Positions 5,717 to 64,000 of a stretch of DNA of 64,000 bases are shown here, one piece after another; position 1 is the first letter of the stretch, and each line of letters starts with the position of its first letter. Location of the stretch: positions 38,831 to 102,830 of the forward strand of contig JBJMHA010000085.1 of assembly GCA_045807625.1 (NCBI GenBank). The letters run 5' to 3'. Both the position numbers and the translations under genes were made by a program. The notes beneath the pieces were generated by a model that did not search any database, had not been told where the DNA came from, and saw nothing but the letters and a program-made list of their open reading frames with translations. This DNA is from Thermoanaerobaculia bacterium (lineage in GTDB: Bacteria > Acidobacteriota > Thermoanaerobaculia > Multivoradales > UBA5704).

Positions 5717-5764
5717 TCTCAAGAGAGCTGATCCCAAGAAAGCCATAGAAGCGAGGAAATACCC

Positions 5765-6400
5765 ATGAGCGACACCATGCAGATCGAAGTCACCCCCCGG
5801 GAGGAGACCGGGAAGAACGCCAACCGGCGGGCCCGCGCGGCCGGCAAGATCCCCGCCGTGGTCTACGGCGGCGGCCGGGAGAGCGTGGCCATCCAGATCG
5901 ACCGCAAGACCCTGCTCGACACCATGAAGGGGCACAGCGGCGAGAACCCGATCTTCCTGCTGAAGCTCGGCGACAAGGAGCGGCACGCGATGATCCGCAA
6001 CATGGAGGTCGATCCGGTGAGCCGCCAGGTGATCCACATCGACTTCCAGCGGGTGGTCATGGACCAGAAGATCCGCGTCACCGTGCCGGTGGAGATCGTC
6101 GGCACCGCGGTCGGCGTGAAGACCGAGGGGGGCATGCTCGACTTCGTCACCCGCGACATCCACGTCGAGTGCCTGCCGGGCGACATCCCGAAGCATCTCG
6201 AGGTCGACGTCACCGACGTGCACGTGGGCCAGCACGTCGAGGCCAAGGATGTTCAGCTCCCGCAGGGGGTGACCCTGCTCGACGACCCCGACAAGGTCAT
6301 CATCTCGCTCAGCCACGGCCGTCTGGAGACCGAGGCCGAGGCGGCGGCGGCCGACCGCGCCGAGCCCGAGGTCATCAAGAAGACGAAGGCCGAGGAGTAG
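5765..6400 (+). CDS. rplY: 50S ribosomal protein L25 / general stress protein Ctc
   Basis: MSDTMQIEVTPREETGKNANRRARAAGKIPAVVYGGGRESVAIQIDRKTL... with acidic C-terminal extension; conserved prs-rplY-pth order. Confidence 0.9.
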   Translation: MSDTMQIEVTPREETGKNANRRARAAGKIPAVVYGGGRESVAIQIDRKTLLDTMKGHSGENPIFLLKLGDKERHAMIRNMEVDPVSRQVIHIDFQRVVMDQKIRVTVPVEIVGTAVGVKTEGGMLDFVTRDIHVECLPGDIPKHLEVDVTDVHVGQHVEAKDVQLPQGVTLLDDPDKVIISLSHGRLETEAEAAAADRAEPEVIKKTKAEE

Positions 6401-9048: not shown

Positions 9049-9444
9049 ATGCGCACGTACGAGCTGATGTTCGTGGTCGACCCTCGCGTCGCCGACGAGG
9101 AAGTGGTCACCATGATGCAGGATTACAAAAACATGATCACGGCCGGCGGATCCCAGATCACCGGCGAAGAGAACTGGGGGCGGCGCAAGCTCGCCTATCC
9201 CATCAACAAGGTCAACGAGGGCAAGTACGTCCTGCTCTACGTCAGCAGCGAGGCCGGCAAGACCGCGCTGCCCGAGGTGGAGCACCGGATGCGCCAGAAC
9301 GACCGCATCCTCCGCTACCTGACGGTGCGTACCGACGAGGATCTCAAGCGGGCCGCCCGCCGGCAGCCGGCCAAGGGCGGCGCCCCGGCCGGCGACCGCG
9401 AGCGCGACGACCGGATGAACGGCGAGCCCGAGGAGGAGGTCTAG
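9049..9444 (+). CDS. rpsF: 30S ribosomal protein S6
   Basis: MRTYELMFVVDPRVADEEVVTMMQDYKNMITAGGSQITGEENWGRRKLAYPINKVNEGKYVLLYV; RBS AGGGAGG upstream; conserved rpsF-rpsR-rplI order. Confidence 0.95.
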   Translation: MRTYELMFVVDPRVADEEVVTMMQDYKNMITAGGSQITGEENWGRRKLAYPINKVNEGKYVLLYVSSEAGKTALPEVEHRMRQNDRILRYLTVRTDEDLKRAARRQPAKGGAPAGDRERDDRMNGEPEEEV

Positions 9445-9447
9445 ACC

Positions 9448-9681
9448 ATGGCGCGCGCAAGAAAGGTCTTCTTCCGCCGGCGCAAGGTGTGTAAGTTCTG
9501 CGCCGACAAGATCGACTACATCGATTACAAGGACGTCAAGCTCCTGCAGCAGTTCATCCCCGAGCGCTCCAAGATCCTGCCGCGGCGGATCTCGGGCACC
9601 TGCGCCAACCACCAGCGCCCCTTGCAGCAGGCGATCAAGCGGGCCCGCCACCTGGCGCTCATCCCGTTCACCACGGACTAG
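9448..9681 (+). CDS. rpsR: 30S ribosomal protein S18
   Basis: [74 protein letters not shown] is canonical S18. Confidence 0.95.
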
Positions 9682-9690
9682 GAGGGTAGC

Positions 9691-10137
9691 GTGAGAGTCA
9701 TTCTGCTCAGCGATCAGCGCCACCTCGGCCGCCGTGGCGAGGTGGTGGACGTCAAGCCGGGCTTCGGCCGCAACTACCTGGTCCCCCAGGGGCTTGCGCT
9801 CGAGGCCACGGACTCCAACATCAAGTACTTCGAGCACCAGCGGGCCAAGATCGACGCCCGGCACGGCAAGGAGCGCGAGGCCGCCCAGGAGATCGCCAAC
9901 CGGATGGCCAACGTCCGGGTGGAGATCCCCAAGCGGGTCGGCGAGACCGACACCCTCTACGGCTCGGTCACCGCGGGCGATGTCGCCGAGGCCCTGGAGA
10001 AGAAGGGCTTCACCATCGACCGCCGGCGCCTGGACCTCGAAGGGGGCATCAAGACCCTCGGCGATCATCCGGTGCGCATCGAGCTCCATCCCGAGGTGGT
10101 CGCCGAGGTGACCGTCTCGGTGGTGCGGGAAGAGTAG
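9691..10137 (+). CDS. rplI: 50S ribosomal protein L9
   Basis: MRVILLSDQRHLGRRGEVVDVKPGFGRNYLVPQGLALEATDSNIKYFEHQRAKIDAR... (GTG start) canonical L9. Confidence 0.95.
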   Translation: MRVILLSDQRHLGRRGEVVDVKPGFGRNYLVPQGLALEATDSNIKYFEHQRAKIDARHGKEREAAQEIANRMANVRVEIPKRVGETDTLYGSVTAGDVAEALEKKGFTIDRRRLDLEGGIKTLGDHPVRIELHPEVVAEVTVSVVREE

Positions 10138-11399: not shown

Positions 11400-11598
11400 G
11401 GCCCCTCTCCCAACCCCTCCCACCCACCCTCACTGGGAGAGGGAAAGCGGGAAGGGTTTTTCTGATCCGACCGATCGGACGGATCCGACGGATCGGTCGG
11501 ATCTAATTGGCCGGTAAGGGATTTTTGTTTTTCTCCCTCTTCTCCCGGTGTGGGAGGGCGGGAGGGGACGGGAGAAGAGGGCCGGGGTGATGAGGGCT
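11400..11598. repeat. Mosaic of intergenic palindromic elements: CCTCTCCC/GGGAGAGG hairpin, GATC-rich palindrome (GATCCGACCGATCGGACGGATCCGACGGATCGGTCGGATC, ~11462-11510), and CCCTCTTCTCCCGG...CGGGAGAAGAGGG hairpin
   Basis: Direct reading; ~11462-11596 recurs reverse-complemented at ~44995-45140; GATC palindrome also at 50150-50200; hairpin family also at 28699-28825. Lies between convergent methyltransferase and PBP genes. Confidence 0.6.
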
Positions 11599-16599: not shown

Positions 16600-16925
16600 G
16601 CCTACCGTGCCGCCGCCGAGAAGCTCCGGGCGGGGATCCGCGACGTGGTCTTCCCCCGAGGGGGACGCCGAAAGGCTCTTGGCGAGGGGCACCCGAGCGG
16701 GAGAGACTCTCATGCCGCAAGCGGCACCCGAGAGAGGTGAAAATTCCGTAGGGGCGGCCCTATGTGGCCGCCCTGGGAGGGGGGCCTGCTCCGGCCCTGC
16801 GACCCCACCCACCCAGGGCGGCCACATAGGGCCGCCCCTACATGACCTTCCCTATTTTCAGAACAGAGCGGAGAATAGGTGCCTATTGAGGATTGGCCAC
16901 GTAGATTAGGATGGCACCTGTTCGG
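16600..16925. repeat. Degenerate duplicate of the RAYT 3' end and its downstream region (left direct repeat), interrupted by a REPIN
   Basis: 16600-16712 matches 19384-19447 plus 19638-19680 (gagaagctccgggcNgggatccgcgacgtggtcttcccccg...gccgaaaggctcttggcgaggggcacccgagcggNagag); 16866-16925 matches 19681-19737 (agcggagaataggtgcctattgaggattggcNacgtagattaggatggcacctgttc). About 190 bp present at the right copy are missing here. Confidence 0.55.
16748..16852. repeat. REPIN (perfect inverted pair of GTAGGGGCGGCCCTATGTGGCCGCCCTG REP units around a 45-nt spacer)
   Basis: gtaggggcggccctatgtggccgccctg...cagggcggccacatagggccgcccctac read directly; inserted within the left direct repeat. Confidence 0.75.
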
Positions 16926-16946
16926 GACCAATTCTTTCGCGCTCGG

Positions 16947-17561
16947 CTAGGCTTGACCCACTGTGCCAAGCGCAATATCTCCAGCCGGAACATAGGTGCT
17001 CATCACGACGCCAGATGCTGAGACCTTCGAAGCCACGAGCCGCAGTGCACATGGCCTTGCGCCTTTTTCAAACAATCGCTTCCCACGGCCAAGGACGACG
17101 GGGTACGTCCATACGTGGTATTCGTCAATGAGAGATGCGGCTTGTAGCGTCTGAATTAGATTGCCGCTGCCAATGATTTGAAGATCGTGTCCGGGCTGCC
17201 CCTTGAGCGCGGTGATGGCAGAAACGACGTCACCGCCAAGTACCGATGAGTTGTTCCATTTCAATGACTTCAACGTGCGGGACGCCACATGTTTTTTTGC
17301 CGCGTTGAACGTCCGCGCAATCGCATTATCCTCTGCTTGGTGAGGCCAATAAGCCGCGAACATTTCGTAGGTTTTTCGGCCGAGTACAAGCTCTCGATCT
17401 TTACCATCGAAACCTGCCGCAGAAAGATCCGTTGTTTCGTCCCAGAAAGCCGAGGTCCAACCACCTAACGTAAAATTTCCGGTTGGATCTTCGTCCGGTC
17501 CGCCTGGCGCCTGCATGACACCGTCCAGTGATGTAAATGTGGACGCGATGAGTTTTCTCAT
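16947..17561 (-). CDS. Dihydrofolate reductase family protein (RibD C-terminal-domain type)
   Basis: MRKLIASTFTSLDGVMQAPGGPDEDPTGNFTLGGW...LVLGRKTYE...GSGNLIQTL pattern of the RibD_C/YwjB family; GC content visibly lower (~52%) than surroundings. Confidence 0.75.
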   Translation of the reverse strand: MRKLIASTFTSLDGVMQAPGGPDEDPTGNFTLGGWTSAFWDETTDLSAAGFDGKDRELVLGRKTYEMFAAYWPHQAEDNAIARTFNAAKKHVASRTLKSLKWNNSSVLGGDVVSAITALKGQPGHDLQIIGSGNLIQTLQAASLIDEYHVWTYPVVLGRGKRLFEKGARPCALRLVASKVSASGVVMSTYVPAGDIALGTVGQA

Positions 17562-17700
17562 ATAACTCTCCTATGATTGGATTACATCGTGCTCGCTAAC
17601 GCTTGAGCTGAGCGGCACACCGCAGCGACCGAGCGTCAGCGAGGGCGCGAGGATGTGTCCGCTCGAGCGAGTGTTAGGCGGCGACCTGTCCAGCCAGTTG

Positions 17701-18171
17701 TTACTCCCAATCCTTTTTCAGCATCAGCTCATCTATCCTGTAGGCGTGAAGCATCTCATGCATCAGCATATGCCTGAACATTATATACACCGAGTAGTGG
17801 CTGAACGCCTCATGCTCGGCCGTCCGCTGCCAATCGTCTGCGGATAGCTCCTTCAACCGCTTAACGACCAGCGTCCGCTCCCGCACGTACCGGCCCAGCG
17901 CTTCGTCCAGATCAACGCTCAGTAGTGAGCCGGCCTCCTCGTCCGGTGATGGTTCCATAGACTTTATTTGGGGGAGCGGGTCAGAGAGCATCAACTCCAA
18001 GCGTGCGAGGAATGTCGCCTGCCCGGTAGATATGTGACAGGCATGCTCGTGAGCGGACCACTTGTTCGGCGCAGGGCGGCGCTTGAGGTTCTGGGGTGGC
18101 ACCTCGCGGACGAGGCCAATGATAATGCCAGGCGCGGCCTCTAAAGTAGCTATCAACGTTTGCGTATTCAT
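17701..18171 (-). CDS. DinB/YfiT-like (DinB_2) family metal-dependent protein
   Basis: 156 aa with HEHACHISTGQATFLARL ... MLMHEMLHAYRIDELM four-helix-bundle His motifs typical of DinB_2; low GC like neighbour. Confidence 0.75.
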   Translation of the reverse strand: MNTQTLIATLEAAPGIIIGLVREVPPQNLKRRPAPNKWSAHEHACHISTGQATFLARLELMLSDPLPQIKSMEPSPDEEAGSLLSVDLDEALGRYVRERTLVVKRLKELSADDWQRTAEHEAFSHYSVYIMFRHMLMHEMLHAYRIDELMLKKDWE

Positions 18172-18561
18172 AATCTCCTCCTTAGTCGCGCGCCGCCAGC
18201 AAGCCGCCGCCGAGTAGGCCAGGGGGCCTTACGGCCCCCCAGCCCCTCTAAGAACCGTACGTGCGAGTTTCCCCGCATACGGCTCAAGCACCTCAAAGGC
18301 CGATCCCTTGATCGAACCCGGCTGCCCCTTACGGGACAACCTTCGCGATACTAACATGGTAGGCACCAGGCTCTGGACTCGCCAGAGGAGGGGCTGCACC
18401 GGCGGGTGGTCGAACCACCTCCACCTCTCTTTGCTCTTCCCGTTTAAGGGTGTTCTCGGGGGGCGAGGTGCCATCCGATTCGCGGCGGTTTACCCCCCTC
18501 GCAAACCCAAGTGGTTCTAGGGTGAATCAGATTCGGGACCGATTTTACGTCTTCATAGGGT

Positions 18562-21894: not shown

Positions 21895-22132
21895 GGGGGA
21901 GCTTTGCGTCTTTTGGGGAGCCCCGCGTCCCATCGGGGGGAAGTCTTCCCCTTTTTTGGGGAGCCTTCCCCTTTTTAGGAGGAGCCCTCCCCTCTTTTGG
22001 GGAGCCTTCCCCTTTTTTGGGGGACCGTTCCCCACTTTTGGGGAACCCTCCCCCTTTTTTGGGGAGGCCTCCCCTTTTTGGGGGAATCATTCCCCAATTT
22101 TGGGGAGCCTTCCCCTTTTTGGGGAGACCCCT
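21895..22132. repeat. Tandem array of ~10 degenerate 20-21-bp units, each a mini-hairpin plus T-run (consensus TTCCCCTTTTTTGGGGAGCC)
   Basis: cttttggggagcc ttcccctttttaggaggagccc tcccctcttttggggagcc ttccccttttttgggggaccg ttccccacttttggggaaccc tcccccttttttggggaggcc tcccctttttgggggaatca ttccccaattttggggagcc ttcccctttttggggagaccc; contiguous, no spacers. Immediately downstream of uvrB. Confidence 0.8.
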
Positions 22133-32544: not shown

Positions 32545-35500
32545 ATGCTGGGGCTTACGGCAGCACATCGGGGTTATGAATATCAGGATCTTCTCGTCGC
32601 TTGCCGCCTTGTCGACGTACTTTTAGGCACCCTCGTCCAGGTCCATGTAGATGAGAAGTTGATTCCTGGTGACCGCTTTGACGATCTTACAACCGTAGAT
32701 ATCAGTGGTCACCGTGAGCGGATTCAATTCAAACACACAGATAACGACGACAAACCTCTAACACTCGCGACGTTTACGAGCGACGATAGAGGTCTTCGGC
32801 TTGATCGCCTCATCGCCGCGATACTCACCGACCGTTTAGGCCCAGGAAGTCATTCTAAGCATCATAGCTTTCGCGTGATTCTTCGGGATAAGCCGCCCTT
32901 AGATCCGCGCCTCACGGCCGTCCTAGCTCCCACCGCAGTTGATCCAGGGCCATTCATACCGGCCATGCCGACAATACGACTGGCCTTTGATGCTGAGGCC
33001 TTGTGGAAACACGTCGAGCAAAAGTCCAACATAGATTCACCCCCTGGTGAGGGTTATTTCGGATTCCTTTCTAATGAAGAGATGCCTATGTTGCGAGCTG
33101 ACCTCGAATGGGCGTGCCAGCACCTCATAATCGAGGTAGCGGCTCCAGCAGCAAGTGGAGACCTGACAACCCCTGAGATAGCCGAACGCCTGCTCCTAAT
33201 GCGAGTCCGTACCGACGTTGGCGCGGAGGCATACCCTAATGTGAACCGCTCTGCGATTGATGTCGCTGCGGCGATGATTGGAGCTGCCCGCGCAGCCCGT
33301 CAGAGGCGACTTATTATTTCCTCTGACGAGTTACTTCGCTGGGCGCAGTTGCGCCACGATTTCGGGGCCGTCTCACGCGCTCATCCGGTTGATCGTAGCG
33401 TCGAGGTTTTAAGAACAATAACAGTCCGAAAGCTTGCAGAGTCTACGGCTGAGCTAGCAAATATCGGAGGGCGACTTCTTGTGGTCGGTCCGCCTGGTCA
33501 AGGTAAGTCGTGGGTTTGTCAGCAACTTCTAGACGAGCTGTCATCCCGCGGATGGCTTACTTCGGAGCACTACTGCTATTTGGGCGATGCCGATGGTGAG
33601 CGATTGGCGCGAGTTCTCGCAGAAACAGTCTTTGGAAGTCTCCTCGGTCGGCTCGCTGATGCCGATCCCAGGTTAGTCGTCGACCATCGGCCACGTTTCG
33701 CAGCTGACGAGGAGGCGCTCATCGGTTGTCTCACTCGGTCCCTCCAATATGATCCGCAACGCCCAGTGGCACTTCTAGTGGACGGAATCGATCACATAAC
33801 TCGAATTCGTTCTAGAGGTGGCAACTTTGATCCTTCCTTGAACCTTGCTGAGGCACTTAGCGCCCTGGCGTTGCCGAAGGGTAGCGTGCTAATCGTCTTG
33901 AGTCAACCTGGGGTACATCTAAAGCCCCTCGAAGAGGCGGGAGCTACAACACTTACCATCCCCGGGTTAGACGAGATTGAGATTCGTTCGCTCGCTGCAC
34001 GTCTCCGTGTCGTGCCTCCGATAGGCATGGCCTCTTACAATGGCGACAGACCATTGCTCGAGACTGACGAAGCTGTATCTGAGTTTCTTTCGGCGCTAGC
34101 AGATCGATCAGCAGGCAACGCTCTGTATGCCACGTATCTTTGCAGGGAGGCCCTCCGTCAGGACTCCACACCTGCGGACCCGGCTACCATAGTGAGAAGC
34201 TTCCCTCCATTCGATGGAACACTCGAGAGCTACTATCAATACTTGCATTCAACGCTTGGTGCCGAAAGTGGGTGGGTTGCCGATGTCATTGCCTTAATAG
34301 ACTTTGCTGTCAACCGTTCCGAGTTACTTGAGATCAGGCCAGATGCATCGCATCATATCGACAAGGCTCTCGAAGTTCTTGCTCCAGTTCTCGTAGAGCG
34401 AGCTGCTCAAGGCGGCGTTCGTATATACCATGAATCCTTTGCTAGATTCCTGCGTCGCCCATTTCAGAACGATCCTATCGCGCTCGGTGCTCTCCTCAAT
34501 CTGATCGCTGCTTGGTTGGAGAGAAAAGGCTTCTTCTCAGACCCTCGAGCTTTCAGCTCTCTCCTTCCGACTCTTACCGAAGCTGGTCGCGATGCTGAAG
34601 TGGTCACTCTCATAGAGCGAGGCTTCGTGGTTCGTGCAGTAGCCGCCGGTTTCTCGGCATCTTCTATTAACAACAACCTCGCAACTGCAATTGGATCCGC
34701 AGCGCGGATCAAGAATTGGCCGGCTGTTGCCCGTTATGTAGAGCTGTCGCGAGCTGCGGATGCTTATCAGGACGAACGCTTTGATTCCAGTTTAGTGCAA
34801 TTCGCCGATATACCGATGGCGTTACTCGGACCAGGAGTTGTTTCGGATCGCTTACTGCATAACGATCGGCTTGTAATGCCCGCGAGGTCTGGGCTTCAGA
34901 TGTGTGCCGCTGTCGACGAACTCGGTGCGGTTGCACCTTGGAGTCAGTACATGAGAGGGTATCTGCGCGAAGCTAAAGCTGACAATACCTCTTATGGTGC
35001 AGAATCCGACCGCAAAGTGGCTCTGGCATGGTTGCGCGGTCGGCTTCGCCTCTCAGTGTTGTTGGAGAGCTCAGAACATCAAGCTAATCTTGGGAGCCAC
35101 GATGATGATAACGATGGCGAGCCGAATGACAGAGAATGGAACCCGGCTAGCCCGCTGGATTGGAACCGTTTAGTGCATTGGGTGAATAGGCGAAGGCTTC
35201 CTGCATTCGATGTGGTCAAGGCTATCTACGATACCTATGGCCTGCCGAGCGTGATTAAGTTTATTCGAATGCTTGATCGTCCGGGAGATATGTATTTGGC
35301 GCTCGCTGAGTTAACCATGGTTAATGGAGCTGTTGATAGCACTATCAATGCGCGACAGTGGGCAATCAATGCCGCATCTTGCGGAGTGGTGCCAGGTTCA
35401 GCGTATCGGATGCTGGCGCTTGGAGTAGATCTATCAAATCTTGCAATCTTATCTGTTAGTGATGCCCGTGATCGCTTGCTATCTCTGACGCAGGATCTCC

Positions 35501-38500
35501 AACATCGATCCGCTCAGTGGGAAGGTTCGAGTATTGGTGAGTGGCTAGATGCGTGTGCCGTTGCTGCCCGTCGAGATTTACTTGGTCTTAACTCCGCCGA
35601 GGCGCTTATTTGTGGAGAAGGATGGTACCGATGCTGGCTTCGATTCTGTGTGGCACTCGTGCGTGCGGAGTCCGCCCACGTCGCTGATCAATCAGTCCTC
35701 GCTCTGGATGCGCTCCGTTGCCTTACTGAAGACCTAAATCCTTTTTCGGGCGAGCCCCGATCGTGCGATCTTTATTCGATCCATGGACGAATAGAGGATA
35801 CAATCCGACGGGCCATGGGCCTCCTTAACGATTCTGGATGGTCGGAAGCTCTTTTGCTGCTGAGAGGAGTTAGTCGATCAATAACAACGACCATCCAAGG
35901 AGAGTTGGGCGGTCCACTTCCGCCTAGTTTGCTTCTCCGGATCGCTCTCGATGGGGCAACGCCAACGCGCCGAGAGGTTGCCACCGATTTTGTCGCAGAA
36001 GAGATTGAGAACGGATCTGCACGTCGATACTATTCAGATCTGGCAGAGTATCGTCTCCTTGGATCCCGGCTCGCGCTTGCTTCGGGTGAAAGAGTAGAAG
36101 CAACTCGACTGTGGCATGAGGCTTGTGAGATGCTTACGGCTTATGGGTGGCACAAAGATATTACAATTTACGAGCTACTTGATCCCTTGCCGGCTCTTAT
36201 TGCTGCGGACCCGGCTCGTAGCCGTAACTGCGTAGCACGCGTGCAACCGGTATGCGAGAGAGTTCCCATCCACACTGACGGAAAGGGAACTCGCCAAGTT
36301 TGGGAGCGCTGGTGGGAACTGCTAGCCAAAGCGGATCCAGTAGCCCTTGCACACCTTGCAGCAAGTCGTCTGCTATGTGAATGCAATGATCCCAACTGGT
36401 TGCTGCATGGTGCACTGGTAGACCTTTGGCGTGAGTGGCAGGAGAGAACAGATCCGATCATTGCGGGCGCTCTCCGGCTTACTCTTGATATCGCATTAGA
36501 TCCTAGAGATCCTCTCGCGCTCGCCCGTCTGACGGATCGAATTAACAGAGGCGACAGTAGCTGTAATGAGCTAATGGCTCTGCTCCTGGCGAGAGCAGAT
36601 GAGCGCCCAGTGGAATATAGCTACTCAAATAGCAGTGAGTTGCTCGCGAAAGACGATGCGCGCATGGCGGAGTTCAACCTCGTGGCGCAACAAGCGAATT
36701 TACCACAAGCTATGCCCGTTCGCGAATTCCGTGATGGAGCATCGCCGTCGCGGTCCCTGCGCGGCGCTGTACGCCGTTCCTTATCTAAAGCTGCTTTTGT
36801 CTTCACGGATATTACTGCTTGTTTTCCTGCCGGCGCTGTTGGGCTCGCTTATGCGACACGGGCATGGCGTAGCCGCCCCTATGATGCGCCAGAGGCAAAC
36901 TGGAGTGTGGATCGCTTCGCAAACATCATTGGCTACCGAATGATAGAGCTCATAAATACCGGAAGAGAGGGGGACATGGTGGCCTCACTGTTATCACTTG
37001 CCGAGGCAACGAGGTTCTATGACCAATTCGGCATACTACGAGCAGTAGCAGAGGGACTGGAGCGCCATCGTCAGCATCGCCTTGCGGCTATGGCTTATAC
37101 GCTTGCCTGGACGAGGGCGCGCAACCACGGTGGTTGGCTGAGGTTCGGAGGAGAAACTGAGATCGATTCGTTGCACCGTGCCACTCAGTTGGATCATGGA
37201 CTCGTACTCAGTGTTGTCGCGGATGAGGTTCAGAGAACTGTTGCCGGAGGTTACGGCACCTACGGAATCTCCCAAGCTCTCATCTACGGTTTTGGGGTCG
37301 GAGCACTTTCCTCCTGCGGCACCTCATCCTTAGATACAGCGTTTGGTGTATGGGACGAAATTTTTTCTGTCATTGCAAGTAGGGCACCGCGGGTACACCC
37401 GTCGGATGACCCCGATGATACGTACACTCCACCCGATCCGGATGATGGCACCGCCGCTCCAGGTGACCTGGACGCTGCGTTGGCCCTGAGCACTCTTGCA
37501 GGTCTTGCCCATCCCGCCCGTGAGAAGAAGCGGCGAACATTGTTAGCGGTGCAACTTCTATTGTCCGAACGCCCGACCCAATCAGCACTCGCCGTAGACC
37601 TTGCCCTTGCCAATCTTTCAGACCCGGCAACACTTACTTGGTTACTTCGGGTGGTAGAGCAGTCGGGTGAGCCGAGGGAGATCGTGGTTGCTAAGTGTCA
37701 GGAAACTCTTACACGACTAGCTACTGGGCCGTACTTGACGATCCGCGCACTTGCACGGCGCCTTCTGCGGGGAGCCGAACCGCCCTTGCCACCGCCGACA
37801 CCTGCGGATAGAGCGCTCGTTGAAGACTGCTCAGTAGACCTCTGGACCCCGCATGGAAATAACTATGAGCCTCTACAGCCGCCTGGACGAAATGAAGAGT
37901 TCTTGGATCTAGTGGCTGGGTTAAGGCTGGAAGAAGCCGAGTCTCTATTGCCGGGGCTTCGAAAAGGTGTGCTCACCCGCCTATCCACTGCAATCCACGA
38001 TGAAACTCGTCAGAAACGGCTGCGTGCACAACTTGATGCCTTCGCCGATCGCCTCGGTCAACAATGGCCAAATGCTTATTTGATACCAGAGCAGACTGTC
38101 GAGGAAATGCTACAACTTGTAGCAACTGGCGGACGTGCGGCTCGGATCGTAAAGGGCAACCCAAGCACTGATCCGGTGCGATGGGAAGATACGCTCGCCT
38201 CTAAGCTTCTCGACGACCCAATGCTACCGATCCGAGTTGAAGGTTGCCGACAGCCACGACCACTAATCCCACCACCACCGGCGCTTCGGGATCCAATCTG
38301 GAGTGATGTTGCGAGTGAACGTGAGCAGGTACTAGCCGCAACTTTGACAGTGGAGTCCTTTGACACTGCTGCAATTATGGCCGGAGGTCGGTTCCATGGT
38401 TGGCGAGTTATTGCTACTGTAGAGACACGAATGGTTAAGCATCCCGATCCAAATATACGCAAGGAACTCGTCGCCAAGCGCTATAGAGCCCTCGAAGTCA

Positions 38501-38976
38501 GAAAGCCTGGTGATCGACGGGGACTAACTTTACCACCCTTTGCAGGGGGTGATATACGTTGGTGGAGCACCTCAGTCGAAGATTTTTCTAATTCGAAGCC
38601 ACACACTCTTAGTGGAAGCCACCCTGTTATTGGTCTAGATAATGATGTCGAGGCGGCAGGCGACGGCCTCCAGAGTCTCGGAATCCCGATACCACTCCTC
38701 TGTCCTACCATTTGGTTGATGGCAACTTTGGGCCTTCGTCCGGGAGAGCCGTTTATACTCGACGCTGAGGATGGCCCTGGCCTTTCGCTCGTTATATGGC
38801 GTACGGATTACGACACCAGTGAGTACTATCTAACGCGCCCTCGTATTTGGGGAGCGGCGATCTTTATGCGGCAAGCTATGCTCGATCGACTAGTTGATGC
38901 GGTCGGTAGTGCTCTCAGCATTCGGGACTTCATCGTTGGTGACTTGGATCTAAGCTCTCCTGCGAGAGAGACTTAG
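32545..38976 (+). CDS. Giant (2143 aa) STAND-type P-loop NTPase with N-terminal nuclease-like domain and long helical C-terminal region; Avs/AVAST-like candidate anti-phage protein
   Basis: Single uninterrupted ORF in a ~53% GC island. N-term GYEYQDLLVACRLVDVL...HVDEKL...DLTTVDISGHRERIQFKH (restriction-endonuclease-fold-like, Cap4/DUF4297-like); Walker A VVGPPGQGKSW (~aa 314-324); Walker B ALLVDGIDH (~aa 402-410); then ~1600 aa of Leu/Ala/Arg-rich helical sequence. Confidence 0.85.
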   Translation: MLGLTAAHRGYEYQDLLVACRLVDVLLGTLVQVHVDEKLIPGDRFDDLTTVDISGHRERIQFKHTDNDDKPLTLATFTSDDRGLRLDRLIAAILTDRLGPGSHSKHHSFRVILRDKPPLDPRLTAVLAPTAVDPGPFIPAMPTIRLAFDAEALWKHVEQKSNIDSPPGEGYFGFLSNEEMPMLRADLEWACQHLIIEVAAPAASGDLTTPEIAERLLLMRVRTDVGAEAYPNVNRSAIDVAAAMIGAARAARQRRLIISSDELLRWAQLRHDFGAVSRAHPVDRSVEVLRTITVRKLAESTAELANIGGRLLVVGPPGQGKSWVCQQLLDELSSRGWLTSEHYCYLGDADGERLARVLAETVFGSLLGRLADADPRLVVDHRPRFAADEEALIGCLTRSLQYDPQRPVALLVDGIDHITRIRSRGGNFDPSLNLAEALSALALPKGSVLIVLSQPGVHLKPLEEAGATTLTIPGLDEIEIRSLAARLRVVPPIGMASYNGDRPLLETDEAVSEFLSALADRSAGNALYATYLCREALRQDSTPADPATIVRSFPPFDGTLESYYQYLHSTLGAESGWVADVIALIDFAVNRSELLEIRPDASHHIDKALEVLAPVLVERAAQGGVRIYHESFARFLRRPFQNDPIALGALLNLIAAWLERKGFFSDPRAFSSLLPTLTEAGRDAEVVTLIERGFVVRAVAAGFSASSINNNLATAIGSAARIKNWPAVARYVELSRAADAYQDERFDSSLVQFADIPMALLGPGVVSDRLLHNDRLVMPARSGLQMCAAVDELGAVAPWSQYMRGYLREAKADNTSYGAESDRKVALAWLRGRLRLSVLLESSEHQANLGSHDDDNDGEPNDREWNPASPLDWNRLVHWVNRRRLPAFDVVKAIYDTYGLPSVIKFIRMLDRPGDMYLALAELTMVNGAVDSTINARQWAINAASCGVVPGSAYRMLALGVDLSNLAILSVSDARDRLLSLTQDLQHRSAQWEGSSIGEWLDACAVAARRDLLGLNSAEALICGEGWYRCWLRFCVALVRAESAHVADQSVLALDALRCLTEDLNPFSGEPRSCDLYSIHGRIEDTIRRAMGLLNDSGWSEALLLLRGVSRSITTTIQGELGGPLPPSLLLRIALDGATPTRREVATDFVAEEIENGSARRYYSDLAEYRLLGSRLALASGERVEATRLWHEACEMLTAYGWHKDITIYELLDPLPALIAADPARSRNCVARVQPVCERVPIHTDGKGTRQVWERWWELLAKADPVALAHLAASRLLCECNDPNWLLHGALVDLWREWQERTDPIIAGALRLTLDIALDPRDPLALARLTDRINRGDSSCNELMALLLARADERPVEYSYSNSSELLAKDDARMAEFNLVAQQANLPQAMPVREFRDGASPSRSLRGAVRRSLSKAAFVFTDITACFPAGAVGLAYATRAWRSRPYDAPEANWSVDRFANIIGYRMIELINTGREGDMVASLLSLAEATRFYDQFGILRAVAEGLERHRQHRLAAMAYTLAWTRARNHGGWLRFGGETEIDSLHRATQLDHGLVLSVVADEVQRTVAGGYGTYGISQALIYGFGVGALSSCGTSSLDTAFGVWDEIFSVIASRAPRVHPSDDPDDTYTPPDPDDGTAAPGDLDAALALSTLAGLAHPAREKKRRTLLAVQLLLSERPTQSALAVDLALANLSDPATLTWLLRVVEQSGEPREIVVAKCQETLTRLATGPYLTIRALARRLLRGAEPPLPPPTPADRALVEDCSVDLWTPHGNNYEPLQPPGRNEEFLDLVAGLRLEEAESLLPGLRKGVLTRLSTAIHDETRQKRLRAQLDAFADRLGQQWPNAYLIPEQTVEEMLQLVATGGRAARIVKGNPSTDPVRWEDTLASKLLDDPMLPIRVEGCRQPRPLIPPPPALRDPIWSDVASEREQVLAATLTVESFDTAAIMAGGRFHGWRVIATVETRMVKHPDPNIRKELVAKRYRALEVRKPGDRRGLTLPPFAGGDIRWWSTSVEDFSNSKPHTLSGSHPVIGLDNDVEAAGDGLQSLGIPIPLLCPTIWLMATLGLRPGEPFILDAEDGPGLSLVIWRTDYDTSEYYLTRPRIWGAAIFMRQAMLDRLVDAVGSALSIRDFIVGDLDLSSPARET

Positions 38977-45084: not shown

Positions 45085-45140
45085 GCTTGAACAAGCCTTA
45101 TCAGACCGATCCGACGGATCCGTCGGATCGGTCTGATCAA
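44995..45140. repeat. Composite palindromic element (reverse-orientation copy of 11462-11596): CCCTCTTCTCCCGG/CCGGGAGAAGAGGG hairpin + AAAAACAAAA linker + perfect GATC palindrome TCAGACCGATCCGACGGATCCGTCGGATCGGTCTGA
   Basis: gccctcatcaccccagccctcttctcccggcccctccctccctcccgcaccgggagaagagggagaaaaacaaaa... is the reverse complement of 11517-11596; sits between convergent uvrC and GT39 genes; GT39 stop codon lies in the palindrome arm. Confidence 0.6.
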
Positions 45141-49868: not shown

Positions 49869-51923
49869 GTGGGACCCGCTCGCGCCAGGGATCTCGCCGA
49901 CGCCGGCCTCCACACGGTTCGCGATCTGATCCTCCACCTCCCCTTCCGCTATGAGGACCGGCGCGGCGTCCTGCCGGTGGCCGCGGCCACGGCCGGGGTC
50001 TCCGCCACTTTCCGGGGGCGCCTGGTGGAGGTGCGCCGCATCCGCACCCGCCGCCGGAGCTTCTCGCTGGTCCGCGGCTTCGTGGAGGACGATTCGGGCC
50101 GGCTGCCGGTGGTGTGGTTCAATCGGCCGTATCTGGCGAGCCAAGTGAATCCGACGGATCCGACGGATCCGACGGATCCGACCGATCCGTCTGATCGCGA
50201 GGAATATGTCCTCCACGGCCCGGTGCGGCCCGCGAAAGAGGGCCTGGAATTGGTGAATCCCTCCTGCGAGCGGGCGGCGGCGGAGGCCGTCCACGGCGAC
50301 CGGATCGCGCCCGTCTATCCGGCGGCCGGCAAGGTGGGGCCGGCGGCCCTGCGGCGGATTCTGGACGGCATCCTTCAGCAAGTCGACCTGCCGGGGGAGG
50401 TGCCGGAGACGGTGCCCACGGAGCTTCTCCAGCGCCACGGGCTGCCGCCGCTGGGGGAGGCCCTGGAGGATCTCCATCACCCGGGAGCGGACGCGGACGT
50501 CGAATCCTTGAATGAACGGCGCACCCCGGCTCATCGCAGGCTGATCTACGGCGAGCTCCTGGAGCTCCAGGTGGCGTTGGCCCTCCTGCGCCTGCGGGAG
50601 GAAGCGGAGCCGCGGACCCGGCGCTACCGGACCGGCCCCCGGCTCCGGAAGCTTCTCGCGGAGATCCCGCCGTTCCCGCTGACCGGCGCCCAGAAGCGGG
50701 TGGTGACGGAGATCCTGGCCGACCTGGCCCGCCCCCACCCCATGCTCCGGCTGCTTCAAGGGGACGTGGGGAGCGGCAAGACGGTCGTGGCGGCCCTGGC
50801 GCTCGCCGCCGCCCTGGAGAGCGGCTACCAGGGGGCCTTCATGACGCCCACCGAGCTGCTGGCCGAGCAGCACCACGAAGGCCTGGCGCGGCTGCTGGGG
50901 GACCGCTGGCGGACGGTCCTGCTGACCGGCTCGGCCGCGGAGGCGGACCGCCGCCGCGCGGAGCTCGCCTCGGGGGAGGCGCGGCTGGCCGTGGGGACCC
51001 ACGCGCTGATCCAGGAGACCGTCGAATTCCAGGACCTGGGGCTGGTGGTGATCGACGAGCAGCACCGCTTCGGCGTGGCCCAGCGCGAGCTCCTGCGCCG
51101 CAAGGGGGACCGGCCGGACTTGCTGGTGATGACCGCCACGCCCATCCCCCGCTCCCTCGCCATGACAGTGTATGGCGACCTCGCCGTCTCCACCCTGGAC
51201 GAGCTGCCGCCGGGCCGCTCGCCGGTGCGGACCGAGGTGGTGCCGGCGCGCCGGCGCGAGGAGGTCTACCGCCGGCTGCGGGCGGCGGTCCAGGCCGGGG
51301 AGCGGGCCTACGTGGTGGCCCCCCTGATCGAGGAGAGCGGGCGGATCGATGCCGCCTCGCTGGCCGAGGTGGAGGCGCGGGTGCGCGAGGCCCTGGAGGG
51401 GTTCCCGGTCGCGATGGTCCACGGCCGTATGCTGTTCCCTGAGCGGGAGCGGGCCCTGCGCGCCTTCGCCAAGGGGGAGGTCCGGGCGCTGGTGGCGACC
51501 ACGGTGATCGAGGTCGGGCTCGACGTGCCCGCGGCCACCTGGATGGTGATCGAGAGCGCCGAGCGCTTCGGCCTCGCCCAGCTCCACCAGCTCCGGGGAA
51601 GGGTAGGGCGGGGATCGGCGCCCGCCACCTGTGTCGCCCTCCACGGACGGCTCTCGGAGACGGCCCGCCAGAGGCTGGAGATCTTCGCCTCGACCACGGA
51701 CGGCTTCGAGATCGCCGAGCGGGACCTCGCCCTGCGCGGCCCCGGCGACCTCCTGGGGACCCGCCAGGCCGGCCTGCCGTCCCTCAAGGCCGCCCGCCTG
51801 CCGGAGGACTGGGACTGGCTGGTGCGGGCGCGCGACGATGCCCGTGAGATGCTGGGGCGGCTGGACGCGGCGGCCTTGCGGGAGCTGGAGAAGGCGGTGG
51901 CTTCCAGGAGCGGAGGGGTATGA
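49869..51923 (+). CDS. recG: ATP-dependent DNA helicase RecG
   Basis: GVGPARARDLADAGLHTVRDLILHLPFRYEDR N-terminus, wedge domain, helicase motifs (GDVGSGKT, DEQHRFGV, TATPIPR, etc.). True start probably a non-ATG codon a few codons upstream of GTG 49869. Contains in-frame NPTDPTDPTDPTDPSDRE insertion. Confidence 0.9.
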   Translation: MGPARARDLADAGLHTVRDLILHLPFRYEDRRGVLPVAAATAGVSATFRGRLVEVRRIRTRRRSFSLVRGFVEDDSGRLPVVWFNRPYLASQVNPTDPTDPTDPTDPSDREEYVLHGPVRPAKEGLELVNPSCERAAAEAVHGDRIAPVYPAAGKVGPAALRRILDGILQQVDLPGEVPETVPTELLQRHGLPPLGEALEDLHHPGADADVESLNERRTPAHRRLIYGELLELQVALALLRLREEAEPRTRRYRTGPRLRKLLAEIPPFPLTGAQKRVVTEILADLARPHPMLRLLQGDVGSGKTVVAALALAAALESGYQGAFMTPTELLAEQHHEGLARLLGDRWRTVLLTGSAAEADRRRAELASGEARLAVGTHALIQETVEFQDLGLVVIDEQHRFGVAQRELLRRKGDRPDLLVMTATPIPRSLAMTVYGDLAVSTLDELPPGRSPVRTEVVPARRREEVYRRLRAAVQAGERAYVVAPLIEESGRIDAASLAEVEARVREALEGFPVAMVHGRMLFPERERALRAFAKGEVRALVATTVIEVGLDVPAATWMVIESAERFGLAQLHQLRGRVGRGSAPATCVALHGRLSETARQRLEIFASTTDGFEIAERDLALRGPGDLLGTRQAGLPSLKAARLPEDWDWLVRARDDAREMLGRLDAAALRELEKAVASRSGGV
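50150..50200. repeat. GATCCGACG-type palindromic repeat inserted in-frame within recG
   Basis: gaatccgacggatccgacggatccgacggatccgaccgatccgtctgatcg encodes NPTDPTDPTDPTDPSD; same sequence family as intergenic palindromes at 11462-11510 and 45100-45140. Confidence 0.6.
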
Positions 51924-61895: not shown

Positions 61896-62076
61896 TCCGG
61901 ATTCTCCTCTCGAAGTGAAAAGTCGCGGCGCGAGGCCACGGAGCGGCCCGGCGGGATGGGGAGAGTGTACAAGATCGCGCGGCAGATCGTTCAAGGGCAT
62001 TCTTTTTTTAGGATGGCATGGTATATTTCGATTATAACTTAGGGGCTAAAAATCCCTGGCTCAGAAAGGAGCTTCG

Positions 62077-62298
62077 ATGAGAACGAGAAGGTTGACGATG
62101 ACCGTCCTGGCTCTCCTCCTGACCGTCGGCGCCGTCATCAGCTCAACTCCCGCAAAGGCCATCGTCTACCCACCCTGCGATGAAATCTGCCCGGATCAAC
62201 CCGGGTCGACCAAGTGCTCGTGCCCGGCCGGGACCAACCTGGCAGGTCGGACGGTGACCTGCAGCAGCGCGGATTGGGACTGCTTCTACATCGATTAG
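62077..62298 (+). CDS. Small secreted cysteine-rich peptide A (73-aa precursor, 6 Cys)
   Basis: AAAGGAG RBS; MRTRRLTMTVLALLLTVGAVISSTPAKA|IVYPPCDEICPDQPGSTKCSCPAGTNLAGRTVTCSSADWDCFYID; AT-rich upstream region; paralogous to 62546..62752. Confidence 0.55.
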   Translation: MRTRRLTMTVLALLLTVGAVISSTPAKAIVYPPCDEICPDQPGSTKCSCPAGTNLAGRTVTCSSADWDCFYID

Positions 62299-62545: not shown

Positions 62546-62752
62546 ATGAGAAAGCTGTTCGGTCTTGCGGTCCTGCTCGGTCTCGCGGCGCTCGTGCCGG
62601 CGCCCCGCGCCGAGGCGATCGGCTATCCACGGTGCGATCTCTACTGTCCGACCACGACCGGCAACTGCTCGTGCCCGTCCTGGACGGACCGGCCCGGGCA
62701 TCTCACCATCTGCACGTCCTGGAATTCCGTGGGTGGTTGCTGGTACGAATGA
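62546..62752 (+). CDS. Small secreted cysteine-rich peptide B (68-aa precursor, 6 Cys), paralog of peptide A
   Basis: AAAGGAGG RBS; MRKLFGLAVLLGLAALVPAPRAEA|IGYPRCDLYCPTTTGNCSCPSWTDRPGHLTICTSWNSVGGCWYE; same Cys spacing pattern (AI.YP.CD..CP...CSCP......T.C.S....C). Confidence 0.55.
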   Translation: MRKLFGLAVLLGLAALVPAPRAEAIGYPRCDLYCPTTTGNCSCPSWTDRPGHLTICTSWNSVGGCWYE

Positions 62753-62761
62753 TCTTTCTGA

Positions 62762-63712
62762 CTACCCCTTCCGCATCCGGAACGCCACCCCATCCCACAG
62801 CCTGAACGGCTGGGCCCCGTTCATCACCAGCACGAAGCCGGCGGCGCGGCTGAGCTTGCGGACCTCGGCGCGGTCCTCCTCGGTGCTGTCCCGATAGGAG
62901 AAGTGGAGGATGACGAACTCGCCGCCGGGCTTTAAAACCCGGGCCGCCTCGTGGAAGTGGGTCTCCACCACCTCCGGTCCCGCCTGGTGGACGTAGGGGA
63001 AGGAGTCCACCGCGTAGACGAGGTCGAAGCGCTCGGCCGGGAAGTCGGCGAGGTCGCGGCCGGAGCTGACGGAGAAGAAGACGTTGGGGAGCCCCGCGCA
63101 GCGCCGGCGGGCGGTCTCGACCATCTTCGGCGAGATGTCGATCCCGTGCGCCTCGCCAACATAGGGGGAGAGCGCCGCCTGCATGCGGCCGATGCCGCAG
63201 CCGATCTCCAGGGTCGACCGGCCGGGGCCGAGGAGATTCCAGTCCTGGAGCTGGGCGACGACCTCCTCTGTGACCCGGGAGAGGATTCCGGGGTCGCCGA
63301 GGGAGTAGGCGGCCACGCTCGCCTCCTCGTTGCGGGTGACCGAGCGGTCGAAAAAGCGGCGGAAGGTGGCGACGATCTCCTCGGGCGGGCCGGACATCCG
63401 CATCGGATCGGGGTGCTCGCGCAGCATGTCCGCCACCCGCTCGCACCCCTCCCGGTGGTCGTGGAGGAGGACCGCCATCTCCCGCAGCCGGGGATCGAGG
63501 GGGCGCCCCCAGCGCCGGGCCACGGAGGCGAGGAGCTCGTCAGTCTCCTCGGCGCCGCCGAGGGCGAGGAGGAGGCGGGAGAGCGCGATCACCGGCGAGA
63601 TGTCGTCCGTGAGCAGGTCGAGCAGCACCTCGCGGGCGATCTCCGGCTCGACCTCGCCCAGGCGGACATCGATCTCCTTCCAGTCGAGCGCCGCGTCGTC
63701 CATGGCCCGCAT
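62762..63712 (-). CDS. Class I SAM-dependent methyltransferase with N-terminal helical domain
   Basis: From ATG 63712 (MRAMDDAALDWKEIDVRLGEVEPE...); motif I TLEIGCGIGRMQAAL, ...GIDISPKMVETARRR..., VYAVDSFPYV, LKPGGEFVI. Confidence 0.75.
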   Translation of the reverse strand: MRAMDDAALDWKEIDVRLGEVEPEIAREVLLDLLTDDISPVIALSRLLLALGGAEETDELLASVARRWGRPLDPRLREMAVLLHDHREGCERVADMLREHPDPMRMSGPPEEIVATFRRFFDRSVTRNEEASVAAYSLGDPGILSRVTEEVVAQLQDWNLLGPGRSTLEIGCGIGRMQAALSPYVGEAHGIDISPKMVETARRRCAGLPNVFFSVSSGRDLADFPAERFDLVYAVDSFPYVHQAGPEVVETHFHEAARVLKPGGEFVILHFSYRDSTEEDRAEVRKLSRAAGFVLVMNGAQPFRLWDGVAFRMRKG

Positions 63713-63730
63713 TCTGCCTGAAATCCCCTG

Positions 63731-63880
63731 AAATATTGTTGAAAGCTGTAAAACAATGTTTGGAGGGCTCAAACATTGTTTCTCCGTCCCAAACAATGAA
63801 AAAAGCTCCCGGACATTGTTTTTTCGTCCCAAACATTGTTTGAAGCCACCAAACAATGTTTGAAGCGGCCGAACAATGTT
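63731..63880. repeat. Array of eight AACA(A/T)TGTT palindromic cores at exact 20-bp periodicity (20-bp tandem units), AT-rich in a 70% GC background
   Basis: aatattgtt(63731) aaacaatgtt(63751) aaacattgtt(63771) aaacaatgaa(63791) ggacattgtt(63811) aaacattgtt(63831) aaacaatgtt(63851) gaacaatgtt(63871): same offset in every 20 nt; begins 19 bp upstream of the methyltransferase start codon; a probable divergent gene begins ~63895. Confidence 0.8.
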
Positions 63881-64000
63881 CTAGCCTCTTTCCGTGGAAG
63901 CCGCCGTCGATCTCCTCACATCCTGGGCTCTCGAAGCCGGCTTCGACCGCGCCGGGGTGGCCCGGCTGGAGCCTCTGGAGCATGCAGAAGCCCTGGCGAG

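Follow-up and report, generated by a model that had tools for sequence, protein, structure and literature searches.

A dispersed array of 20-bp phased palindromes in Thermoanaerobaculia, a putative platform for a homodimeric DNA-binding protein

Introduction

Short sequences with dyad symmetry, repeated at regular intervals, are known from several bacterial, plasmid and phage systems. Here we describe an array of this kind, designated type A, at positions 63731-63890 of a 64,000-nucleotide stretch of DNA from a Thermoanaerobaculia bacterium of the phylum Acidobacteriota (contig JBJMHA010000085.1, positions 38,831 to 102,830; the whole stretch is hereafter called the window). The array lies between a methyltransferase gene and queG. 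Loci and contigs from relatives are referred to by L numbers.

The best functional analogy is with coliphage 186 CI, a heptamer of dimers, and with the octamers of the Lrp/AsnC family (feast/famine regulatory proteins, FFRP). In these systems, rows of short dyad sites, with 5-bp arms around an A/T centre, lie about two helical turns apart, and an oligomer of dimers wraps 100-200 bp of DNA; the Lrp/AsnC palindromes have the form abcde-WWW-edcba. The type-A array differs in that its centre is a single W and its eight sites keep a strict 20-bp register within a dispersed element. Neither a CI-like nor an Lrp-like partner has been linked to the arrays, and membership in these systems cannot be claimed. 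Plasmid centromeres offer a second comparison: pSK41 parC (4 x 20 bp), R1 parC (10 x 11 bp) and F sopC (12 x 43 bp, with a 7-bp inverted repeat) are likewise tandem repeats with dyads, on which a cooperative superhelical nucleoprotein filament is formed, and the period of pSK41 parC is identical to that of our array. The type-A array, however, is chromosomal, is present at many loci, lacks adjacent partition genes and has variable spacers instead of identical whole repeats. Known filament or wheel assemblies include the ParR complex on the 20-bp pSK41 parC repeats, the wheel of 186 CI and the discs of Lrp/AsnC.

In organization, the array resembles interspersed repeats. BOX elements of Streptococcus pneumoniae and mycobacterial interspersed repetitive units (MIRU) of Mycobacterium tuberculosis are likewise dispersed at tens of intergenic loci. 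They are built of an end module, tandem internal units and a second end module, often abut or overlap flanking stop or start codons, and can alter expression of their neighbors. Units of the type-A array are shorter (20 bp versus 45 bp in boxB and 46-101 bp in MIRU), and each contains an 11-bp AT-rich perfect palindrome, with selected cores, free spacers and no implied stable stem-loop; the phase is exact to the base pair, and the unit number is stable rather than variable. Repetitive extragenic palindromic (REP) sequences and the BIME-2 class of bacterial interspersed mosaic elements in enterobacteria are also regularly spaced extragenic palindromes whose presence varies at orthologous sites, and they are bound by the architectural proteins gyrase and IHF. 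REPs, however, are imperfect hairpins of ~35 bp in alternating orientation, with a GTAG-type tag, a REP-associated tyrosine transposase (RAYT) and hundreds of copies, whereas type-A cores are 11 bp long, form no useful hairpin, show no flank covariation and are apparently low-copy. CRISPR arrays share palindromic repeats, variable spacers of constant length, polarity and degenerate terminal repeats. The type-A array differs in size (11-bp repeat and 9-bp spacer versus at least 23 and at least 21 bp, the defining ranges being 23-55 and 21-72 bp) and in its spacers, which have a GC-rich consensus and change by point substitution in orthologues, not by acquisition. No cas genes occur in the array neighborhood.

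By the features that define these classes, the array is not an iteron set, a partition centromere, a CRISPR or a REP. It does have the hallmarks of an interspersed repeat, i.e., homologous copies at unrelated loci and a modular, polar build. By analogy, it would function most like a multi-operator for an oligomer of dimers, while appearing organized and distributed like BOX, MIRU and BIME repeats.

Results and Discussion

Anatomy of the array

The array consists of eight 20-bp units, each with an 11-bp core, the odd palindrome AAACA-W-TGTTT (AAACA[A/T]TGTTT), at its head and a 9-bp GC-rich spacer behind it. By both direct reading and a repeat finder, every start-to-start spacing is exactly 20 bp. 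The original observation of eight palindromic cores at identical offsets was thus borne out, and the irregular spacing that it had named as the outcome to watch for on re-alignment did not appear. The cores at 63751 and 63851 read AAACAATGTTT, those at 63771 and 63831 AAACATTGTTT, and that at 63871 GAACAATGTTC. These five of the eight match AACAWTGTT perfectly; the other three, at 63731 (AAATATTGTTG), 63791 (AAACAATGAAA) and 63811 (GGACATTGTTT), are degenerate. When up to one mismatch was allowed, AACAWTGTT had nine matches in the window, seven of them inside the array, compared with a mean of 1.5 in dinucleotide shuffles of the window, none of which (0 of 100) reached nine. The array region is also the longest stretch below 42% GC in the window, which averages ~68% GC, in agreement with its earlier description as AT-rich within a GC-rich genome.

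The array is polar. A head motif, AAATCCCCTG (63721-63730), abuts the first core, with its reverse complement CAGGGGATTT facing the methyltransferase gene, and recurs as AATTCCCCTG, AATTCTCCTG or GATTCCCTA at one end of arrays elsewhere. The degenerate mid-array unit AAACAATGAAAAAAGCTCCC (63791-63810) is the reverse complement of a tail unit, GC-TTTTTT-CAWTGTTT, that closes many arrays at other loci. This tail-like unit divides the window array 4+4 and is kept in all orthologous arrays.

A dispersed family of arrays in Thermoanaerobaculia

A search of metagenome contigs for pairs of cores at a distance of 20 bp yielded at least 120 matching stretches, about half of which were chance pairs in AT-rich genomes. 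Among the matches listed were 45 high-GC contigs (0.55-0.71) with 4-9 cores in phase, of which only L096 and L132 represent the methyltransferase locus. Altogether, at least 58 high-GC Thermoanaerobaculia loci (about 58 with genome-derived loci included) carry a 20-bp-phase array. Their 320 neighbor spacings comprised 261 of 20 bp, 26 of 40, 14 of 21, 14 of 41 and 3 of 19, one 20-bp pair per locus following from the search design. Most arrays have the head, as AATTCCCCTG or GATTCCCTA, at one end, often after a decayed unit GAACACGCTCC, and the tail at the other; some show a +1-bp phase slip after four units.

Clustering of the flanks by blastn placed these arrays in at least 27 unrelated groups (tblastx produced a false giant cluster in high-GC DNA, and blastn was used instead). 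The largest groups were the locus of a protein that we designate SP116 (at least 10 contigs), the methyltransferase locus (at least 7) and a type III polyketide synthase locus (at least 3). Because the same array occurs at this many unrelated loci, it is not a private operator of the queG/methyltransferase pair, and the idea of a dedicated methyltransferase operator is not supported, its neighbors elsewhere being functionally unrelated. The outcome named beforehand as a refutation, a common dispersed minisatellite, largely applies as far as dispersal is concerned: the array is indeed spread over many loci, but its unit number is stable.

We found one array in the 64-kb window and none beyond the methyltransferase locus in 533 kb of related DNA, which suggests a low copy number per genome. 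Viral contigs contained no arrays apart from two chance matches in AT-rich contigs, and no similarity to any plasmid record was detected; an origin from phage or plasmid was rejected on these grounds. Literature searches on phased 21-bp palindromic intergenic repeats and on the core sequence returned nothing relevant. The window array is one copy of a dispersed, probably once-mobile element family of Thermoanaerobaculia.

Selection on cores and spacing

Six orthologous arrays (window, L006, L007, L096, L009 and L013) were compared. They align unit by unit, without indels that break phase, and the mid-array degenerate unit, GAGC-TTTTTT-CATTGTTT, is conserved in all six. Divergence from the window was 0.07-0.17 at core positions and 0.14-0.43 at spacer positions, the latter similar to the 0.14-0.38 measured at four-fold degenerate sites in the neighboring methyltransferase gene. 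When every pair was considered, inner core positions 2-5 and 7-9 differed by 0-0.08 and spacer positions by 0.23-0.51. The 9-bp spacers evolve neutrally, at the synonymous-site rate of the neighboring gene; given this rate and the low divergence of the cores, the cores and their exact spacing are held by purifying selection.

A logo of 218 interior units showed A-A-C-A-W-T-G-T-T at 97-100%. It is dyad-symmetric to about ±7, with weaker flanks (C at -6, G at +6). At -2 and +2, C and G are practically fixed (99-100%), which favors base-specific recognition over mere AT-richness or curvature. Left and right core flanks do not covary (complementarity of 0.393 versus 0.392 after re-pairing of flanks); the symmetry therefore belongs to a consensus that is read twice, in a homodimer-like manner, and not to a stem.

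A putative platform for a homodimeric protein

We favor the reading that the array is a multi-site platform for one homodimeric, sequence-specific DNA-binding protein, and we consider the chance that it is correct to be about even. From the sequence features above, we infer binding by a protein, an oligomeric mode of binding and an effect on transcription. The element would be a polar module of head, about eight 20-bp units and tail, in which each unit functions through an 11-13-bp palindrome, (C)AAACA-W-TGTTT(G), and the palindromes would form a row of binding sites for the same homodimer. A spacing of 20.0 bp corresponds to about 1.9 helical turns, or a rotation of about -34 degrees per unit (from B-DNA geometry at 10.5 bp/turn). 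Neighboring dimers would then sit nearly on the same face, and eight of them would follow a slow left-handed spiral along ~160 bp, where they could assemble cooperatively as a filament or a wrapped wheel.

The sites match a single dyad-symmetric consensus and are kept in orthologous promoters while the spacers drift; they are not confined to the promoters of a functionally coherent gene set. Of the proposals made at the outset, a cooperative array for a dimeric regulator is retained with respect to dyad sites, strict phase and core selection, but not a role specific to the methyltransferase. Placement of all sites on the same DNA face is nearly right, apart from the small rotation at each step.

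Flanking genes and putative promoters

The array fills the gap between two divergent genes. On the minus strand, a class I S-adenosylmethionine (SAM)-dependent methyltransferase gene (62762-63703) encodes a Methyltransf_11/25 domain at residues about 160-290. Its conserved start is ATG 63703, because an upstream ATG at 63712, in frame in the window, is out of frame in L006 and L007. The distance of 19 bp from array to start codon given earlier holds for ATG 63712, but the conserved start lies 28 bp away. No identical protein is on record for the window methyltransferase with either start; its homologues assign the organism to the Thermoanaerobaculia, Acidobacteriota. On the plus strand, the truncated divergent gene that had been anticipated just past the array is queG, which encodes epoxyqueuosine reductase and starts at GTG 63894 (63894-64000, cut by the window end). 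Its translation, VEAAVDLLTSWALEAGFDRAGV, agrees with the N-terminal part of the QueG proteins (PF08331) of L001 and L096, whose genes adjoin orthologous methyltransferase genes.

A putative -10-like hexamer, CAGAAT (63711-63716, minus strand), is located 7 nt upstream of ATG 63703, with the -35 position inside the first core. In orthologues, GACAAT, AACAAT or CACAAT stands at this distance from the methyltransferase ATG, and a conserved CTTGCCAGG-N15-(G/A)ACAATG is found about 8 nt before this ATG in L008-L013, L018, L019 and L022. A putative queG promoter (63860-63887, plus strand) is composed of TTGAAG (63860-63865), a 16-nt spacer and TAGCCT (63882-63887), 6 nt before GTG 63894; the last core (63871-63881) lies within its spacer. 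Relatives have a -10-like TATCCT or TAGCAT 6-8 nt ahead of the queG start. Because the -10-like elements are so close to both starts, the queG and methyltransferase mRNAs are predicted to be leaderless or to have very short leaders.

In many relatives that lack an array, a gap of only about 25-65 bp separates queG from the methyltransferase gene, the two standing back to back, and the array must therefore carry or overlap both promoters. Since it occupies all of the sequence between the two -10 elements, its terminal cores fall on the -35 or spacer positions of both promoters. In the window, the end cores would thus cover both promoters, and their occupancy would control queG and the methyltransferase gene jointly, most simply by occlusion.

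A 187-aa minus-strand open reading frame (ORF) downstream of the methyltransferase gene was considered as a co-varying regulator and discarded as a spurious Arg/Pro-rich frame. It overlies the region of two paralogous small plus-strand ORFs of 73 and 68 aa (62077-62298 and 62546-62752), situated between ahpC and the methyltransferase gene. These have signal-peptide-like N-termini and Cys-rich C-termini, with one sub-threshold Pfam match to an EGF-like domain (FXa_inhibition).

The orthologous locus in relatives

We compared 33 orthologous loci from species-representative genomes and further loci from assemblies. A type-A array occurs at the same place in L006/L132, L007, L096, L009 and L013, whose methyltransferases are 81-96% identical to that of the window. 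One carrier of an array here is the Thermoanaerobaculia chromosome OY969112.1. Its presence varies among close relatives, and where it is present the unit number is stable (8, 8, 8, 8, 8 and 9), which shows that it is not a hypervariable minisatellite.

Arrays of other kinds occupy the same gap in other relatives. L016 has about 25 units of TCCCCCAATCATCTGGGACAT (9407-9990). A shared RGGGCSC(A)C core is found in L018 (9620-9900), L010 (about 5550-5900), L022 (9700-9950) and L008 (8860-9200). Further arrays occur in L001 (about 5550-5900), in L024 (9740-9930, unit CCACAGCCGCTGCGCCACATG), in L005 (210-440, unit TGGACGGCCTCGTTTTTCCT), in L032 (about 9800-9970, CCAGGATTCGG at 21/42 bp) and in L033 (about 9670-9960), where an 84-bp higher-order repeat is made of four different 21-mers. 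Most units of these non-A arrays also hold a dyad. A search of a small DNA sample with strict regular expressions found no copies of the non-A families outside their original loci. The site is either a hot spot for array elements or one at which arrays turn over in place in a satellite-like manner.

The surroundings of the locus are variable as well, with an island at L001 3088-4887 and 6995-7722 and at L005 1508-2244. Some relatives have a cassette of an AAA_21 ATPase gene, a 187-aa gene and a 79-aa gene inserted between queG and the array, and in L001 the 3' end of the 79-aa gene is duplicated around an insertion of ~500 bp. In some relatives, a PhdYeFM/PIN toxin-antitoxin pair follows the methyltransferase gene.

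SP116, a candidate partner

The SP116 operon is the only locus that always bears type-A cores, intact or decayed. SP116 is a 125-aa protein found only in Thermoanaerobaculia (125 clusters). In all 10 contigs that contain upstream sequence, an array lies upstream of a strong TTGACA-N17-TAnnnT promoter of the operon (upstream regions L167 2700-3010 and L152 860-1190, and L112, L121, L203 and L205). The array ends 55-100 bp upstream of this near-consensus promoter and could act as an upstream element. The leader of the operon is about 190 nt long and encodes a conserved small basic peptide, M-x-R-N-R-G-P-P..., upstream of SP116. The gene occurs twice in at least one metagenome-assembled genome (VIA62_15635 and VIA62_21315), and its neighborhood differs between genomes.

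An AlphaFold model of SP116 (predicted local distance difference test score, pLDDT, 81) shows a long helical hairpin and a conserved FGVRPRKTGPRGPRK basic disordered tail. It had no Pfam match and no match to a PDB fold with an E value below 4, and the idea of a recognizable DNA-binding fold was dropped. Where a DNA-binding protein is autoregulated, its own gene is often the most conserved of its targets, and for this reason SP116 is a lead to the binder of type-A arrays, and no more than a lead; that it is the binder seems rather unlikely.

SP116 could also belong to a broader scheme, which we regard as improbable, in which several orthogonal families of 20-21-bp phased dyad arrays would each be the landing pad of their own filament- or wheel-forming chromatin protein, with satellite-like turnover and movement on small elements. 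Examples of such families are type A (AAACAWTGTTT), whose protein could be SP116, and type B (TCCCC-T6-GGGGA), and GGGCGCAC, TCCCCC...TGGGACAT and CAGCCGCTG types are present at the queG/methyltransferase site in relatives. If true, orthogonal array families with proteins of their own would be a new kind of bacterial chromatin-organizing system.

Alternative explanations

Several observations weigh against a protein-binding regulatory platform. No cognate binding protein was found, and no DNA-binding gene consistently adjoins the arrays. The genes next to arrays have no common function: they include gltX, folE, fic, purC, lepA/SUI1, gvpK, TPR/NB-ARC genes and a pair formed by a sigma-54 activator gene and, after it, a histidine kinase gene, among others. 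A strict scan of 63500-64000 for sigma-70 promoters and terminators gave nothing, and the promoter elements described above are therefore proposed solely from conservation in relatives. At the queG/methyltransferase gap itself, the unrelated 21- or 42-bp-period arrays of relatives, or the lack of any array, indicate that no particular array is essential for these two genes. Finally, two arrays lie between convergent genes and several start at the stop codon of the upstream gene, which fits an interspersed element better than a regulon.

These last points lead to the strongest alternative, that the array is a selfish or neutral interspersed repeat, such as a miniature inverted-repeat transposable element (MITE) or a repeat of BOX or MIRU type, that spreads or formerly spread through transposition or recombination, with the palindromes serving as recognition sites of a mobilizing enzyme and an accidental position at promoters. 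Arrays are distributed over at least 27 unrelated flank groups and all intergenic contexts, including the convergent one; rough gene calls among the matches listed gave about 8 divergent, 7 tandem and 2 convergent cases, not significantly different from random intergenic placement. At four loci (L188, L191, L201 and L161), the array begins at the upstream stop codon (...GAATTCCCCTGA|AACA), with the motif GAATTC(C/T)CCTGA supplying the last codons of the upstream gene (...[E/K]-F-[P/S]-stop), as expected of insertion at gene 3' ends.

In one subfamily (L105, L113, L116, L122, L135, L139 and L168), the copies, found at different loci, are clearly homologous over ~250-330 bp and have a common unit order, common spacers and decayed outer units. 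Their right-hand end carries a hairpin, CTGTCCTC-N4-GAGGACAG, with a compensatory change in L105. (Close to its array, L139 also has the reverse transcriptase gene of a group II intron.) For the whole family, cross-locus spacer similarity averaged 0.463, compared with 0.454 in the permutation control, and a few cross-locus pairs had collinear spacers above this control, the outliers being L096-L152 at 0.72 and L129-L007 at 0.71. Head/tail polarity and cross-locus homology thus speak for spread by copying and not for regulatory selection at each site. Together with the presence/absence variation at the methyltransferase locus among close relatives, these data indicate that whole arrays spread by copying and then resided for long with neutral drift of spacers.

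An inert insertion, however, would not be expected to show purifying selection in place on cores and phase with neutral spacers. Copy number is apparently low, unit number is stable, and neither a transposase gene nor a clear combination of terminal inverted repeat and target-site duplication is associated with the arrays; L201 has head-like motifs at both ends, most arrays having them at one end only, and no target-site duplication was recognized. We consider a selfish or neutral repeat possible, though unlikely, and retain the platform for a homodimer as the preferred reading.

Less probable still, and in our view doubtful, is that the array is a structural DNA element. Phased A/T tracts and flexible CA/TG steps would make the DNA curved or wrappable; it could serve to recruit gyrase or nucleoid proteins of a general kind, or to buffer supercoiling between two divergent promoters, as has been suggested for BIME/REP clusters. 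AT-rich cores in a ~68% GC genome and a position between divergent promoters would suit such a role, as would the 20-21-bp period of several unrelated array families, both at this locus and elsewhere, which suggests that periodicity outweighs sequence. Curvature, however, would tolerate A/T-rich variants, whereas the C at -2 and G at +2 hardly vary and inner-core divergence is near zero, and the GC-rich arrays of relatives are without A-tracts. The same two positions make generic AT-rich nucleation of a nucleoid protein, one of the functions initially proposed, a poor fit: the AT-rich island expected for H-NS/Lsr2-type proteins is present, yet invariant C-2/G+2 is unexpected for minor-groove shape readout.

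An RNA-level element, i.e., a transcribed 5' untranslated region or small RNA whose hairpins bind a protein or affect stability or termination, is very unlikely. Single-stranded array RNA does fold better than shuffled sequences (-56.8 versus -31.2 kcal/mol, z = -6.7), and a second array class in the window (21945-22126) reads as tandem mini-terminators after uvrB, with the dyad kept in L208. A good fold, however, follows automatically from tandem palindromes, a single core giving only a 4-5-bp A-U stem with a 1-3-nt loop; there is no covariation beyond the core, and arrays occur in both orientations relative to neighboring genes. A search of Rfam found nothing at the gathering threshold, and its permissive mode gave only a meaningless miRNA match (E = 0.07). 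Hairpin or cruciform function was rejected for the same reasons, the fold being explained by the tandem palindromes and the flanks not covarying. Replication iterons, also among the first proposals, can hardly be credited, nor can a centromere for the partition of an integrated plasmid or chromid: tandem ~20-bp repeats with dyad cores recall pSK41 parC or F sopC, but no rep, parA/parB or parM/parR genes lie beside this array or related ones (ORF and Pfam survey of the window, gene tables of L001-L005), the surroundings are housekeeping chromosomal genes (e.g., the RNase P RNA gene and uvrB), each lineage has many loci, and the plasmid and viral comparisons given above were negative.

Other repeats and features of the window

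The second array (21945-22126) has about nine units of 20-21 bp, TTCCCC-T5/6-GGGGAGCC, and is located where uvrB, on the plus strand, and a TPR gene, on the minus strand, converge, in the gap between their 3' ends. Read on the plus strand, each unit resembles a small terminator, with a GGGGA-GCCT-TCCCC hairpin and then T6. In L208, the orthologous gap between uvrB and the TPR gene (4880-5080) has an array of the same kind in which the arms are changed to GTCC...GGAC and the dyad is preserved. Clusters of 9-bp tandem repeats (GATCCGACG / GATCGGTCG), with GATC every 9 bp, are found at 11464-11503, 45100-45138 and 50149-50189; the one at 45100 forms a long perfect palindrome, CAGACCGATCCGACGGATCCGTCGGATCGGTCTG. 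They may represent clustered methylation sites or a further family of dispersed phased repeats.

A single plus-strand ORF of 2143 aa (32545-38976) lies in a 7-kb block of 53-57% GC, compared with ~68% for the genome, and was probably acquired horizontally. A group II intron domain, RF00029 (18209-18287, minus strand), is in a low-GC stretch at about 16900-18300 (55% GC at 17-18 kb). The AT-rich upstream region of the minus-strand gene ahpC (62001-62137) includes a sequence, TTATAATCGAAATATA, that is similar to a PerR/Fur-type 7-1-7 half-site and may be a peroxide-regulator operator.

Implications

The defined 11-bp core provides a handle for capturing a DNA-binding protein in a lineage for which genetics hardly exist. 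These loci, with sites in an exact 20.0-bp register, spacers that drift neutrally and array families that replace each other in the same promoter gap, would be a clean natural system for the assembly and evolution of multi-site nucleoprotein complexes. Regulatory sites that are first copied and then selected are well known for eukaryotic transposable elements and, to our knowledge, are poorly documented in bacteria. If our reading is right, copying would disseminate cis-regulatory or architectural sites in bacteria and selection would afterwards hold them, and uncultured, abundant soil Acidobacteriota would use dispersed elements to set platforms of about eight sites beside promoters.

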